In this document: piece after piece, positions 38,032 through 42,750 of the stretch
How positions within the stretch are numbered: the stretch's first letter is position 1
Layout: the number at the start of each line of letters is the position of its first letter
Source of the DNA: Betaproteobacteria bacterium
GTDB lineage: Bacteria; Pseudomonadota; Gammaproteobacteria; Burkholderiales; Burkholderiaceae_C
DNA length: 64,000 nt
NCBI GenBank assembly: GCA_031417735.1
Contig: JANOWE010000174.1
Coordinates: 2,358-66,357 of the forward strand
Direction: 5' to 3'
Position numbers and translations under genes: made by a program
Notes under the pieces: generated by a model
Told to the model about the DNA's origin: nothing
Database searches by the model: none
The model's input: only the letters and a program-made list of their open reading frames with translations

Positions 38032-38535
38032 ATGCCCCAGCTCCATGTCAACGGCACGCTGCGACAGCACAACGCCGAAGCCGACACCCCGCTGCTGTGG
38101 GTGCTGCGTGAACAGCTCGGCCTGACCGGCACCAAGTACGGCTGCGGCGTGGCCCAGTGCGGCGCCTGCACCGTGCACATCGACGGCGCACCGGTGCGCA
38201 GTTGCGTGATGCCGGCCTCGGCCGTGCAACCGACGCAGAGAATCACCACCATCGAAGGCCTGTCACCCGACGGCGGCCATGCGCTGCAAAAGGCATGGCT
38301 GGCGCTGGACGTGCCGCAATGCGGCTTCTGCCAGAGCGGCATGTTGATGGCCGCAGCCGCGCTGCTCAAGGACAAGCCCCAGCCGACCGACGCCGACATC
38401 GACGCGGCGATGAGCAACATCTGCCGCTGCGGCACCTACAACCGGGTCCGCGCGGCCATCCACCAGGCTGCCGGCAACCCGGGCAGCCGCACGGCGGCGG
38501 TGAACATCATCCACGTCCAACGGAGCAGCACATGA
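38032..38535 (+). CDS. (2Fe-2S)-binding small subunit, isoquinoline 1-oxidoreductase alpha (IorA)/xanthine oxidase family
   Basis: [16 protein letters not shown]...RSC; PQCGFCQSG; NICRCGTY. Confidence 0.93.
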
Positions 38536-40808
38536 GCCGGCGCCCCAACAGCGGCGCCGTGCTGCCGCCAGCCTTGCGCGGTCTGCTTGACGGCGCCATG
38601 CCCGGCGGAACCGCCGCGGCCGTGTCCGGCTTGTCGCGGCGCAGCTTCATCGCCAGCGCCGGCCTGGCCAGCGGCGCGCTGGTGCTGGGTTTTCCGCTGC
38701 GTGCGTCGGCCCAGGGCCAGGCGCCTGAGCTCAACGCCTGGGTCGTGGTGCAGCCCGATGAGAGAGTCATCATCCGCATCGCCCGCAGCGAGATGGGCCA
38801 GGGCACCTTGACCGGCCTGGCTCAGATGGTGGCCGAAGAGCTTGGCTGCGACTGGGCCCGCGTGAGCACCGAATACCCCACGCCGGGTCAGAACCTCAAG
38901 CGCAGCCGGGCCTGGGGCAACTTCTCCACCGGCGGCAGCCGGGGCATCCGCGAGTCGCACGACTATGTTCGCAAGGGCGGTGCCGCGGCCCGCATGATGC
39001 TGGTGCAGGCCGCCGCCGACGGCTGGGGCGTGCCGGCGGCCGACTGCCGCGTCGACAAGGGGCTGGTCAGCCACCCGGCCAGCAAGCGCCGCGCCAGCTA
39101 TGGCCAGCTGGCCGCCGCTGCGGGCAAGCTCACGCCGCCGGCCAACGTGGTGCTCAAAGACCCGAAGGACTGGCAACTCATCGGCCAACCTCTGGCCCGC
39201 CTGGACACGGCGGAGAAAACCACGGGTGCCCAGGTCTATGGCATGGATCTGTTGCTGCCCGGCATGCTCAACGCCGCGGTGCGCGACTGCCCGGTGTTCG
39301 GCGGCAAGCTCAAGTCCTTTGACGCGGCGGCGGTCAGCGGCCGGCCCGGCGTGAAGAAGGTGCTGCAGATCAGCGACAGCGCGGTGGTGGTGGTGGCCGA
39401 CACCTGGTGGCGGGCCAAGACCGCACTCGACGCGCTGCCCATCGCCTGGGACTTCGGCCCCAACGGCCAGGTCCAGCAGGCCGACATCGACGCCATGCTC
39501 AAGGAAGGCCTGTCGGCCGACAAGGCGGCCGTGGGCAACAGCAACGGCGACGCCAAGGCCGCGCTGGCCGGCGCGGCGCGGCGGATCGAAGCGGTCTACG
39601 GCGTGCCGCACCAGAACCACGCCACCATGGAGCCGATGAACGCCACCGCGCTGTTCACCGCCGCCGCCGGCGTCCAGCCCGCGCGATGCGAGGTCTGGAC
39701 GCCAACGCAGAATGGCGAGGCCGCGCTGGCCGCCACCGCCGAGGCCGCGGGTCTGCCGCCGGCGCAGTGCGAGGTCTACAAGATCCACCTCGGTGGTGGC
39801 TTCGGCCGGCGCGGTGCGGTGCACGACTGGGTGCGCCAGGCGGTGGCCATTGCCAAGGCCATGCCGGGCACGCCGGTCAAGCTGCTGTGGACGCGCGAGG
39901 AGGACATGGCCCATGGCCTGTACCACCCGATCACCCAGTGCAAGCTCAGCGCCGGACTGGACGCGCAGGGGCAGTTGCAGGCGCTGCACATGCGCATCTC
40001 GGGCCAGTCGATCCTGGCCGGGCTGTTTCCGCAGAACCTGCGTGACGGCAAGGATCCGGTGGTGTTCCAGGGCCTGAACAACGGCGGCGGCGAGGCCATG
40101 TTCGGCTACAGCGTGCCACACCTGCTGATCGACCACGCCATGCGCAACCCGCATGTGCCGCCGGGCTTCTGGCGCGGGGTGAACCTGAACCAGAATGCGA
40201 TCTATGTCGAATGCTTCATCGACGAGGTCGCTCACGCCACCGGCCAGGACCCGCTGGCCCTGCGCCGCAGCCTGATGAAGGCCCACCCTCTGCACCTGCG
40301 TGTGCTCAACGCCGTGGCCGAGCGCGCCGGCTGGGGCCAGCCGGCGGCCGACATCGCCGGGCAGAAGGTGTTTCGTGGCCTCGCGCAAACCCATGGCTTC
40401 GGCAGCTATGTCGCGGCCTGCGCCGAGGTCTCGGTCAACCCGGCGGGCGAGCTGACCATGCACCGCATCGTCGCCGCCACCGACCCCGGCCACGCCGTCA
40501 ACCCGCAGCAGATCGCGGCCCAGGTCGAGGGCTCGTTCGCCTATGGCCTGTCGGCCGCGCTGTACGGCGCCTGCACGGTCAAGGACGGCCGCATGGAGCA
40601 GACCAACTTCGACACCTATCCGGTGCTGAAGATGGCGGCCATGCCCAAGGTCGAGGCCCTGGTGCTGCCGTCGGGCGGCTTCTGGGGCGGCGTGGGCGAG
40701 CCGACGATTGCGGTGGCGGCGCCGGCGGTGCTCAACGCGATCTTTGCCGCGACAGGTGTGCGCATCCGTCAGTTGCCGCTGGCTCAGCAAAGCCTGAAAC
40801 GTGCTTGA
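38532..40808 (+). CDS. Molybdopterin-binding large subunit, IorB/aldehyde oxidoreductase family, Tat-exported
   Basis: Tat motif SRRSFI; RSEMGQGT; TGGSRG; HATMEP; GGGFGRR; FWRGV; GVGEP. ATGA overlap with the small subunit. Confidence 0.92.
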
Positions 40809-41184
40809 ACGGGCCTTGACCGTCGCTCTGACCCTGACCAGCCTGGCCGCATCGGCGCAAGCAGCGGGCGACCCCCAGCGTGGCGCGGCGATCGTGGCCG
40901 GCCGCAGCGCCGGCCTGTGTGTGCTGTGCCATGCGGTGCCCGGCGTGCCGGCCACGCAGGTCGGCAACCTGGGGCCTGATCTGGCCGGTGTGGGCATGCG
41001 CTTGAACGCAGCCGATCTGCGCCAGCGCCTGCTGGCGCCCGAACGCAGCAACCCCGAGACGGTGATGCCGGCGTATGGCCGCAGCGAAGGTCTGGTCCAG
41101 GTGAGCAGCGCCCGCCAGGGCCAGCCGCTGCTGGGCGAGCAGCAGATCGAGGATGTGCTGGCCTATCTGGGCACGCTGAAGTGA
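40801..41184 (+). CDS. soxX: SoxX-like monoheme c-type cytochrome
   Basis: Sec signal; CVLCH; GNLGPDL; NPETVMP (distal Met). Overlaps the upstream stop. Confidence 0.85.
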   Translation: MLERALTVALTLTSLAASAQAAGDPQRGAAIVAGRSAGLCVLCHAVPGVPATQVGNLGPDLAGVGMRLNAADLRQRLLAPERSNPETVMPAYGRSEGLVQVSSARQGQPLLGEQQIEDVLAYLGTLK

Positions 41185-41660
41185 GCCGAACCACCGCCCT
41201 GCCCTCGCGCCGCCGACTGATGGGCCAGGGCCTGCTGCTGGCTTTGTCGGTGCGGCCGTTGTCGGCGCTGGCGCTGCCGCTGGAGCCGTCGCTGCTGGCC
41301 GCGATCAAGGCCTGGGCCGCCGGCACGCCGCCGCAGACCGGCCGCGTCGCGTTGGACATCGCCCCCCTGGTGGACAACGGCAACGCGGTGCCGGTGGTCA
41401 TACGCGTGCAAAGCACCATGACCGAGGCCGACCATGTGCGCGAGCTCGTGGTGTTCAACGAACGCAACCCGCAGCGCGACATGCTGCGCTGCCAGCTCGG
41501 CCCGGCCAACGGCGCGGTCAACGGCGCGGCCCAGGTCAGCGCCCGGCTGCGCCTGGCCACCAGCCAGCGCCTGGTGGCGCTGGCGCGCATGGCCGACGGC
41601 AGCGTCTGGCAGCACCAGGTCGAGGTCATCGTCACCCTGGCCGCCTGCATCGAGTCCTGA
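41181..41660 (+). CDS. SoxY paralogue with non-canonical C-terminal arm (VTLAACIES instead of VTIGGCGG)
   Basis: Tat motif SRRRL; PLVDNGNAVP; NPQ; ARLRLATSQ; terminal AACIES. Confidence 0.85.
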   Translation: MSRTTALPSRRRLMGQGLLLALSVRPLSALALPLEPSLLAAIKAWAAGTPPQTGRVALDIAPLVDNGNAVPVVIRVQSTMTEADHVRELVVFNERNPQRDMLRCQLGPANGAVNGAAQVSARLRLATSQRLVALARMADGSVWQHQVEVIVTLAACIES

Positions 41661-41671
41661 CCCGAACGACC

Positions 41672-41995
41672 ATGGCCGCCCGCATCCTGCTGCACATTCC
41701 CAGCCCGGCCCGGCGCGGCGAGGTGGTCGAACTGCGCGCGACCATCGGCCACGCCATGGAAACCGGCCTGCGCCCCGACAGCCAGGGCCGCACGGTGCCG
41801 CGAAACACCATCACCCGCTTCGAATGCCGGCTCGACGGCGTGCTGGTATTCGGCGCCGACCTCTACCCCGCCACCGCCGCCAATCCCTACCTCGGCTTCA
41901 CGCTGCTGGCGCAGCGCAGCGGCACGCTGCAGTTCAGCTGGACCGGCGACCAGGGCTTCAGCCACAGCGAGACCCGGCCGTTCACGGTGACATGA
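41672..41995 (+). CDS. soxZ: SoxZ-like protein
   Basis: GEVVEL...HAMETG; AANPY...F; FSWTGD. No signal peptide, as expected for SoxZ. Confidence 0.88.
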   Translation: MAARILLHIPSPARRGEVVELRATIGHAMETGLRPDSQGRTVPRNTITRFECRLDGVLVFGADLYPATAANPYLGFTLLAQRSGTLQFSWTGDQGFSHSETRPFTVT

Positions 41996-42750
41996 ACGGC
42001 CTGCGTTCGGTCGCCGCCACGACCCTGGCCTTGACCCTGGTGTTGGCAGCACAGGCCGACCCGCGCCGCAGCGGCGCCACGGCCATGAGCCCTGAGTTGC
42101 AGGCCTGGCAGGCGGACGACACGCGCAATCCGGCCCAGCTGTGGGTGGGCGAGGGCCAGGCGCTGTGGCAGCGCGCGGCCGCCAACGGCGCCAGCTGCGC
42201 CGGCTGCCATGCGCCGCAAAGCCTGGCCGGCGTGGCGCTGCGCTACCCGGCATTCGACGCGCGGCTGGGTCGCGCGCTGAGCCTGGCCGGGCGCATCGAC
42301 CAATGCCGCCAGCGCCACCAGGGACTGCCCGCCCAAGGGCCGGATGGCGCCGAGGTGCTGCCGCTGAACGCCTGGCTGGCGCACCAGGGCCGGGGCCTGC
42401 CCATCGCGCCACCCGCTGACACCCGGCTGGCGCCCGCGCAGGCCCGGGGCGCGCAGATCTGGTTGCAGCGCCTGGGCCAGCTCAACCTGTCGTGCGCCCA
42501 ATGCCATGAGCAGCGCGCCGGCGGCCGGCTGGGCGGCACGCTCATCCCGCAGGCTCACCCCACGGCCTACCCGGTGTACCGGCTGGAATGGCAGGCCTTG
42601 GGCTCGCTGCAGCGCCGGATGCGCGGCTGCCTGGTGGGCGTGCGCGCCGAACCCTTCGCGCCCGACTCAGCCGACTGGGTGGCGCTGGAGGCCTACCTGA
42701 TGCAGCGCGCGGCCGGCATGGTCAGCGAGGGCGCCGGGCTGCGGCCCTGA
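41992..42750 (+). CDS. soxA: SoxA-like diheme c-type cytochrome
   Basis: Signal peptide; CAGCH; RIDQC; GQLNLSCAQCH; YPVYRLEW; RRMRGC active-site Cys; ALEAYL. ATGA overlap with soxZ. Confidence 0.88.
   Translation: MNGLRSVAATTLALTLVLAAQADPRRSGATAMSPELQAWQADDTRNPAQLWVGEGQALWQRAAANGASCAGCHAPQSLAGVALRYPAFDARLGRALSLAGRIDQCRQRHQGLPAQGPDGAEVLPLNAWLAHQGRGLPIAPPADTRLAPAQARGAQIWLQRLGQLNLSCAQCHEQRAGGRLGGTLIPQAHPTAYPVYRLEWQALGSLQRRMRGCLVGVRAEPFAPDSADWVALEAYLMQRAAGMVSEGAGLRP

Follow-up and report, generated by a model that had tools for sequence, protein, structure and literature searches.

A putative periplasmic module joining a xanthine oxidase-family enzyme to a SoxYZ-type carrier in Burkholderiales

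Periplasmic sulfur oxidation is described in textbooks on the model of the Sox carrier system, and surveys infer sulfur cycling from counts of sox genes. Here, a 64,000-nucleotide (nt) stretch of DNA from a Betaproteobacteria bacterium (GenBank assembly GCA_031417735.1, contig JANOWE010000174.1), called the window below, is described, which carries a set of sox genes joined to genes for a predicted molybdenum enzyme belonging to the xanthine oxidase (XO) family. This module occupies positions 38032-42750 of the forward strand, and all coordinates given without a locus (L) or contig (C) number are positions in the window. The source assembly consists of 316 contigs and is 95% complete. The same pairing is found again in hundreds of Proteobacteria from soil and freshwater, and in a species scan with one genome per species, at least 592 genomes encode a relative of its SoxY-like protein, referred to as SoxY'.

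The six-gene operon of the window

The six genes encode, in this order, the two subunits of the molybdenum enzyme (IorA and IorB), SoxX, SoxY', SoxZ and SoxA (Table 1). Profiles, motifs and gene junctions confirmed every detail that a first-pass annotation of the window had given on their types, strand and close packing. Four of the five junctions are overlaps, which consist of ATGA at iorA/iorB and at soxZ/soxA, GTGA at soxX/soxY', and 8 nt shared by the iorB stop and the soxX start (GTGCTTGA). At the remaining junction, soxY' and soxZ are separated by a gap of 11 nt. From the gene overlaps alone, co-transcription of the six genes is predicted. A promoter consensus scan returned 3 sites against 0.2 expected in shuffles, and the promoter candidate in front of iorA is a sequence match only. 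SoxX and SoxA are the only heme proteins of the operon, and no gene for a flavin adenine dinucleotide (FAD) subunit is present in it. As the annotation had stated, soxB, soxC and soxD are absent from the window; the SoxB and SoxC of this genome are encoded on the contigs C215 and C71, respectively. A gene for SoxF or another flavocytochrome c of the sulfide dehydrogenase type (FCSD) was also not found within the window.

Table 1. Features of the module and of its surroundings in the window (aa, amino acids; Tat, twin-arginine translocation; ORF, open reading frame).
Feature	Position	Strand	Description
iorA-like	38032-38535	+	167 aa; Pfam Fer2_2 95.5 bits, Fer2 34.5 bits
iorB-like	38532-40808	+	758 aa; Pfam MoCoBD_1 and MoCoBD_2; twin-arginine SRRSFI
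soxX	40801-41184	+	TIGR04485 68.6 bits (cut-off 61); CVLCH; Sec signal; monoheme cytochrome c
soxY'	41181-41660	+	TIGR04487 165.8 bits (cut-off 172); Tat signal SRRRLM; ends VTLAACIES
soxZ	41672-41995	+	Pfam SoxZ 82.3 bits; TIGR04490 72.2 bits (cut-off 76)
soxA	41992-42750	+	TIGR04484 183.8 bits (cut-off 110); diheme type-I; Sec signal
Sigma-70-like promoter candidate	37970-37999	+	TTGTCA-18-CATCAT; 33 nt 5' of iorA
Three signalling genes	30301-37679	-	CHASE-PAS hybrid histidine kinase with Hpt (1528 aa), response regulator-GGDEF protein, double-receiver histidine kinase
Short ORF	37673-37930	+	Ala/Thr/Ser repeat ASATATASATAT, then a hydrophobic stretch
VapB antitoxin and PIN-domain toxin	42794-43443	+	43.6 bits and 28.8 bits; 4-nt overlap
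DEAD-box helicase, apparently split	43459-44954	-	two overlapping frames
Helicase N-terminal part	44409-44954	-	Q motif, GSGKT motif
Helicase DEAD/Helicase_C part	43459-44478	-	begins at profile position 51

In the translation of iorA, eight cysteines are arranged in two [2Fe-2S] motifs (C38-x4-C43-x2-C46...C58 and C97-x2-C100...C132-x-C134). No signal peptide is present in this translation, and IorA is presumably exported together with IorB. Among related loci, the identity of IorA is 55-84%. The start of iorB is preceded by a GGAG Shine-Dalgarno sequence. The nearest solved structure to IorB is 8GY3_C, the large subunit of a membrane aldehyde dehydrogenase from Gluconobacter, which matches over the full length (E 1e-70). 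In this alignment IorB retains the motifs GGGFGRR and GVGEP, the latter of which we take to carry the catalytic glutamate of the XO family. IorAB is classified from these features as an XO-family molybdenum hydroxylase of the two-subunit IorAB/AldGH type without an FAD subunit.

The best family for SoxY' is by far TIGR04487, the 'SoxY-related AACIE arm protein', although the score is below the cut-off. The model of true SoxY (TIGR04488) gives 57.3 bits with a cut-off of 125, and the GGCGG arm that it calls for is missing. This bears out the annotation, which had referred to a named family with an AACIE arm and had known of no demonstrated function for it; none was found in the literature. The arm cysteine of Paracoccus SoxY (2OX5) aligns to Cys156 of SoxY'. 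Among the 120 best SoxY' homologs, all have an A[AG]C[IVL][ED] arm at the C-terminus, which is AAC[IVL]E in 118. SoxZ has no signal peptide. SoxA aligns over its full length to SoxA from Rhodovulum sulfidophilum (1H31, E 5e-36) and retains CAGCH and CAQCH, the heme-1 cysteine (IDQCR) and the active-site Arg-x-x-x-Cys (RRMRGC). According to the export signals in the sequences, IorAB and SoxY'Z would be two Tat-exported pairs, and SoxX and SoxA would be exported through Sec. No part of the module looks degenerate, and its functional motifs appear intact.

Conservation of the linkage and genomic context

Counting modules by the TIGR04487 E-value or bit score alone was rejected, as canonical SoxY proteins of the soxXYZAB type from other lineages reach approximately 145 bits. 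A genuine module (L114) scores 114 bits. Since the scores of canonical SoxY and of a genuine module overlap, architecture was read locus by locus. This was done in two sets of loci. The first consists of the 80 loci that best match SoxY', every one from Burkholderiales, of which 78 are informative and 2 uninformative. The second, the even sample, starts from 301 near-complete Burkholderiales genomes; 72 of these have a TIGR04487-like match, and all of their loci were fetched.

Among the nearest relatives, iorAB lies directly upstream of the sox genes in 76 of the 78 informative loci. The full six-gene order is present in 53 of the 80 loci, and in 22 further loci, most of them truncated at contig ends, soxX follows iorB directly. 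These 22 include loci in which iorB is matched piecewise (L013, L074 and L083), internally deleted (L050) or followed by a weak soxX match (L084). The real exceptions are L047, which has iorAB-soxY'Z without soxXA, L051, in which iorAB is deleted and a remnant of the IorA N-terminus is left, and L079, which has soxY'Z alone on a 4.4-kb contig. No soxB was found within 10 kb at any of the 80 loci. The best conserved protein is IorB, with a median identity of 72% compared with 52-55% for the Sox proteins, and the six proteins diverge in a correlated manner from locus to locus (rho 0.43-0.76). The six-gene arrangement is far beyond chance, and the six genes are one conserved, co-inherited unit that moves together.

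In the even sample, the variant-arm SoxYZ adjoins the molybdenum enzyme in 63 of 68 informative loci. The first-pass annotation had allowed for the linkage not being conserved across genomes, which is contradicted by both sets. Two types of linked loci were observed. Type A, the type of the window, combines iorAB with soxX-Y'-Z-A and has AAC[ILV]E, SAC[LI]D or LACLE arms (31 loci). Type B consists of iorA-iorB-soxY-soxZ only, has no soxX, soxA or other heme gene, and carries arms of the forms ...SGCG, ...TACGG and ...GCGL (32 loci); this architecture was sampled within Burkholderiales. Reading one type-B locus by eye (L156, 5267-8766) confirmed the four-gene layout. The type-B loci fall among L133-L184, where arms end in ...GCG(L), ...ACGG or ...SSCG. 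Five other loci have a variant-arm soxXY'ZA without iorAB within approximately 7 kb. The remainder are two ordinary GGCGG clusters with soxB, one GGCGG-arm soxX-A-Y-Z locus without soxB nearby (L193), and four loci cut by contig ends (L137, L161, L182 and L190). No locus of the even sample has iorAB with soxXA but without the carrier. As 32 of the 63 carrier-linked loci are without soxXA, the conserved core is the molybdenum enzyme plus the carrier, not the molybdenum enzyme plus the cytochromes.

The phylogeny of IorB agrees with this grouping. In a tree with four unlinked IorB paralogs as outgroups, the carrier-linked proteins form one clade of 72 rows (support 96 in the Shimodaira-Hasegawa-like approximate likelihood ratio test, SH-aLRT), which includes the IorB of the window and is separated from the outgroups by long branches. 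Within it, type B (26 rows, support 100) is set apart from type A (44 rows, support 99). The loci L047/L133 and L135 are placed inside type A and are secondary losses of soxXA in which soxYZ was retained. Across 69 IorB sequences, 266 positions are at least 97% conserved. Five arginines (R82, R85, R140, R488 and R538) are kept in both carrier-linked clades and absent in the paralogs, and several of them adjoin cofactor-binding motifs. These arginines would fit an anionic substrate or an acidic carrier arm. Two cysteines that are invariant in type A, Cys386 and Cys413, were considered as a sulfur relay and rejected, as Cys413 is valine in type B. Both are probably structural and, judged by sequence motifs, seem to be placed at the far ends of two strands that lead to the molybdenum site.

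At the phylum level, the module is found in Alphaproteobacteria, among them genomes of 7-8.8 Mb, and in Burkholderiales genomes of 1.7-2.1 Mb, which are from freshwater. The alphaproteobacterial copies have two additional genes between iorB and soxX, for a monoheme cytochrome c and for an FCSD-type sulfide dehydrogenase flavoprotein, and in Oxalobacteraceae such a pair is placed after soxA. Plasmid pNMS14P1 of Methylobacterium sp. NMS14P carries overlapping module genes annotated as (2Fe-2S) protein, Moco-binding protein (Moco, molybdenum cofactor), cytochrome c, FAD oxidoreductase, SoxX, 'SoxY-related AACIE arm protein', SoxZ and SoxA. At one alphaproteobacterial locus (L097, 11491-14029), an XdhC-XdhC_C-MobA-like (MocA-type) fusion and a moaA-like gene come after the module, which by sequence are Moco maturation genes beside a molybdenum enzyme.

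SoxB is encoded by 72% of the carrier-bearing Burkholderiales genomes and by 43% of the others, an odds ratio of 3.4 that ignores kinship. It is absent from 18-20 of 58-72 near-complete carrier-bearing genomes (approximately 30%), and was not found in the genomes that hold the Pseudaquabacterium pictum W35 and Pseudoduganella umbonata loci. Since approximately 30% of the carrier genomes are without SoxB, a role that strictly depends on a distant SoxB is unlikely. The module is tied to sulfur oxidizers, yet independent of SoxB.

The genome of the window also has a separate canonical sox cluster, which the annotation had suggested looking for. Contig C215 carries soxYZAXB, with a true GGCGG SoxY, SoxZ, SoxA, SoxX and the only true SoxB of the genome (864 bits). 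No soxCD adjoins this cluster, and SoxC (536 bits) is encoded on contig C71. The Sox proteins of the module are 26-36% identical to these canonical ones, and the module is therefore not a recent duplicate. Directly 5' of the canonical soxY on C215, an ORF (L008, 12041-12808, reverse strand) combines a Tat-like leader and a C-terminal region that resembles a cytochrome; it has no CxxCH motif and no NCBIfam match. Two unlinked IorAB paralogs are present on contigs C263 and C40, both without a SoxYZ-type carrier; the C40 IorB has three CxxCH motifs in its own reading frame. An FccAB pair is found on contig C225. On contig C132 (L009, 5658-9482, reverse strand), a pyrroloquinoline quinone (PQQ) dehydrogenase of the methanol/ethanol family (TIGR03075, 744 bits) adjoins a fused SoxYZ-like carrier (TIGR04557, 220 bits), and this pair also lies beside a PqqU-type TonB receptor. 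The pair on C132 gives this genome two examples of a SoxYZ-type carrier coupled to a periplasmic dehydrogenase outside the Sox system.

The genes around the module were considered as a clue to its substrate, and this was rejected since the flanks are not conserved across loci. The commonest flank family is the TctC solute receptor, in 22 of the 48 loci with more than 5 kb of upstream sequence. In the window, three signalling genes are divergent from the module. Comparable large kinases lie beside the module in approximately eight other loci, which is too few to assert a regulatory link. The short ORF between the signalling genes and iorA resembles a membrane-transporter N-terminus in its hydrophobic stretch, gave no match in a Pfam search, and could be a gene remnant. 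Directly 3' of soxA, the VapB/PIN pair sits in a patch of lower G+C content, and the apparent split of the helicase beyond it reflects either a frameshift in the gene or a mistake in the assembly. At L047, the region 3' of the soxXA-less AACIE module encodes a fusion of a metallo-beta-lactamase-fold protein with a rhodanese domain (13864-14955), separated from the module by a Crp regulator and a Dps-like ferritin. This architecture is typical of persulfide dioxygenase-rhodanese fusions.

Possible roles of the module

The module in the window most likely represents an intact, self-contained periplasmic unit of a widespread type, in which Tat-exported IorAB would work directly with its own SoxYZ-type carrier. 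That the molybdenum enzyme oxidizes sulfur bound to the cysteine of the carrier, with no need for SoxB or SoxCD, is a plausible proposal that we hold to be somewhat short of probable. In such a route, SoxXA would oxidatively couple a reduced inorganic sulfur anion to Cys156 of SoxY'. Sulfur loaded at the sulfide or polysulfide level would be likelier than thiosulfate, because a thiosulfonate adduct would be a dead end without SoxB. The molybdenum enzyme would oxidize the carrier-bound sulfane sulfur in the place of SoxCD, in two-electron steps and with oxygen from water, and the resulting carrier-S-SO2- intermediate would hydrolyze spontaneously to sulfite and the free carrier. Spontaneous sulfite release from S-SO2- species has a parallel in persulfide dioxygenase chemistry, and a self-hydrolyzing intermediate would account for the missing SoxB. 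From the [2Fe-2S] clusters, electrons would pass to SoxX/SoxA or a soluble cytochrome c. Substrate, product and the action of the molybdenum enzyme on the carrier are all inferred.

Multiple observations speak for this proposal: the linkage itself, the core pairing that persists without soxXA, the monophyly of IorB, the correlated divergences, the FCSD insertion and the SoxB enrichment. In addition, the catalytic residues of SoxA and SoxY', the glutamate motif and five arginines of IorB, and the existence of carrier genomes without SoxB are in line with it. It is tentatively suggested that carrier-linked IorAB could be an unrecognized, monophyletic class of the XO family, with an adduct on a SoxYZ-type cysteine arm as its substrate, which would let sulfane sulfur be oxidized to sulfite in the periplasm without O2, SoxB or SoxCD. 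If true, hydroxylases of the XO family would for the first time be seen to act on sulfur and on a substrate bound to a protein, and about one in five Burkholderiales genomes, as well as many Alphaproteobacteria, would have the route.

Several points weigh against a sulfur-oxidizing role. We know of no XO-family enzyme that acts on sulfur or on a protein-bound substrate, and the nearest solved relative of IorB (8GY3_C) is an aldehyde dehydrogenase. The four-gene form is without a loading enzyme, so that charging of its carrier must be unlinked or spontaneous, and the SoxB co-occurrence statistic does not account for phylogeny. A comparable 'second sox gene cluster' has been described in Starkeya novella, in which soxX2Y2Z2A2F2 (Snov_1982-1977) and an XO-family molybdenum enzyme (Snov_1975/1976) form one operon (Kappler et al. 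2013, PMC3797975). On thiosulfate, on methanol and on glucose alike, the Sox proteins of this cluster were undetected and its transcripts were at very low levels (PMC3797975). Of the two soxY genes in Bradyrhizobium diazoefficiens, thiosulfate oxidation needs only soxY1 (PMC5748708), and soxY2 is presumed to be of the present carrier type.

The similarity to an aldehyde dehydrogenase fits a different explanation, in which the cysteine of SoxY'Z would trap a periplasmic aldehyde as a thiohemiacetal and IorAB would oxidize this to a thioester, which would be hydrolyzed to the acid. SoxXA, where present, would be an electron outlet or recharge the carrier. The missing loading enzyme of the four-gene form is compatible with a spontaneous thiol-aldehyde adduct, TIGR04557 SoxYZ-like carriers go with aldehyde-making PQQ alcohol dehydrogenases, as in the pair on C132, and retention of the module in very small freshwater genomes is also counted in favor. 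On the other hand, sulfide dehydrogenase genes of the FCSD type lie inside the operon of several lineages, SoxA retains all residues for conjugation of a sulfur anion, SoxB is enriched in carrier-bearing genomes, and it is general knowledge that the family already handles free aldehydes well without a carrier. Carbonyl chemistry on the carrier is considered unlikely, but less so than the explanations that follow.

IorAB could also oxidize a free small molecule, such as an N-heterocycle or an aldehyde, with SoxX and SoxA as a mere electron acceptor in the place of a triheme subunit and SoxY'Z present as the habitual partner of SoxXA. Related IorAB-type enzymes do carry a triheme cytochrome c, the C40 paralog has its three CxxCH motifs, SoxX and SoxA likewise total three hemes, and the operon contains no other cytochrome. 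The first-pass annotation had proposed a similar alternative, with the enzyme using the Sox cytochromes as its electron sink. This is weakened by the finding that the core is the molybdenum enzyme plus the carrier: half of the linked loci have SoxYZ without SoxXA, and the neighborhood of these loci holds no conserved cytochrome gene. The reverse combination, iorAB and soxXA without a carrier, is missing from the even sample, and the secondary losses at L047 and L135 took soxXA and not soxYZ. Also, the hemes of SoxA are generally known to be cysteine-ligated and of very low potential. A free substrate is regarded as improbable.

A role of SoxY'Z in maturation or repair, with a persulfide on the cysteine arm supplying or restoring the labile terminal Mo=S ligand in the periplasm, appears doubtful to the same degree. 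The association is strict and ancient, with one carrier per molybdenum enzyme whether or not SoxXA is present, and maturation genes follow the module in L097. It is also general knowledge that XO-family enzymes need the sulfido ligand for activity and that cytoplasmic sulfuration chaperones cannot act after export. However, most periplasmic enzymes of the IorAB/PaoABC type manage without a carrier, as do the C263 and C40 paralogs, and a two-protein carrier with two cytochromes would be a heavy cost for repair. The presence of FCSD inside the operon points to sulfur flux rather than to a trace supply of sulfur.

Finally, a redundant or silent partial duplicate of canonical Sox without a function of its own, as suggested for S. 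novella from its three growth conditions (PMC3797975), is very improbable: this genome does hold a full canonical Sox set, and decay occurs occasionally (iorAB deletion in L051, internal iorB deletion in L050), but the carrier is widespread among species genomes (at least 592), the conserved positions and catalytic motifs of IorB are intact, the low identity to the genome's own Sox proteins excludes a recent duplicate, and the module is retained in genomes of 1.7-2.1 Mb and in those without SoxB.

Relation to known systems

The annotation had regarded the module as the best candidate for an uncharacterized system. This holds insofar as no tested function was found, but the system had not gone unnoticed, as the cluster was drawn in S. 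novella in 2013 (PMC3797975). This account is the only description of the cluster found in the literature, and its authors considered that the cluster possibly has no functional significance (PMC3797975). A 2026 survey reported approximately 1000-1300 soxA, soxX, soxY and soxZ paralogs that are 'insulated' from sox clusters and left them unexplained (PMC13500833). The Burkholderiales sample, in which variant-arm carriers go with a separate machine, suggests that many of these may belong to a machine centered on an XO-family enzyme, which has forms with and without SoxXA. If the molybdenum enzyme acts on a carrier-bound adduct, the known chemistry of the XO family would be extended, and a new branch of sulfur (or aldehyde) metabolism would be present in common soil and freshwater bacteria. 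Even otherwise, the genes of the module should not count as thiosulfate oxidation in metagenomic annotation.

By its description, the second sox cluster of S. novella is a close counterpart of the module in the window, as it also combines a duplicate SoxXA and SoxYZ with an XO-family molybdenum enzyme and has no SoxB or SoxCD. It differs in having soxF2, which encodes a flavocytochrome c and has no equivalent in the window. The type-B module shares with the window a TIGR04487-like SoxY and a SoxZ in the same order and a predicted periplasmic location, and its IorB belongs to the sister clade. It has no soxX or soxA, its arm endings are different, and its IorB is 47-50% identical to that of the window.

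Canonical Sox systems of the Paracoccus/Rhodovulum type have, like the module, SoxX, a diheme SoxA with cysteine-ligated hemes, and a SoxYZ with a cysteine near the C-terminus. In gene order (soxXYZA) the module matches the soxXYZAB type, and its proteins are 31-47% identical to those encoded in soxXYZAB loci. Canonical systems have a GGCGG arm, SoxB and SoxCD, whereas the module has an AACIE(S) arm and an XO-family enzyme instead of SoxB and SoxCD. The isoquinoline 1-oxidoreductase IorAB and the aldehyde dehydrogenase AldFGH (8GY3) resemble the molybdenum enzyme of the module in having a small subunit with two [2Fe-2S] clusters, a large molybdenum subunit and no FAD subunit. Unlike these enzymes, the module enzyme is predicted to be Tat-exported and soluble, always lies beside a SoxYZ carrier, forms its own clade with five clade-specific arginines, and is without a dedicated triheme or other multiheme cytochrome c partner, be it a subunit such as AldF or a fused part as in NicB-type enzymes.

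The TIGR04557 carrier is, like that of the module, a SoxYZ-type carrier recruited by a non-Sox periplasmic dehydrogenase, but its SoxY and SoxZ are fused and its partner is a PQQ enzyme instead of a molybdenum enzyme. The role proposed for IorAB comes closest to that of SoxCD, a periplasmic molybdoenzyme that is also proposed to oxidize carrier-bound sulfane sulfur. SoxC belongs to the sulfite oxidase family, with a different fold and molybdenum coordination and with the cytochrome SoxD as its partner, and has no homology to IorAB.

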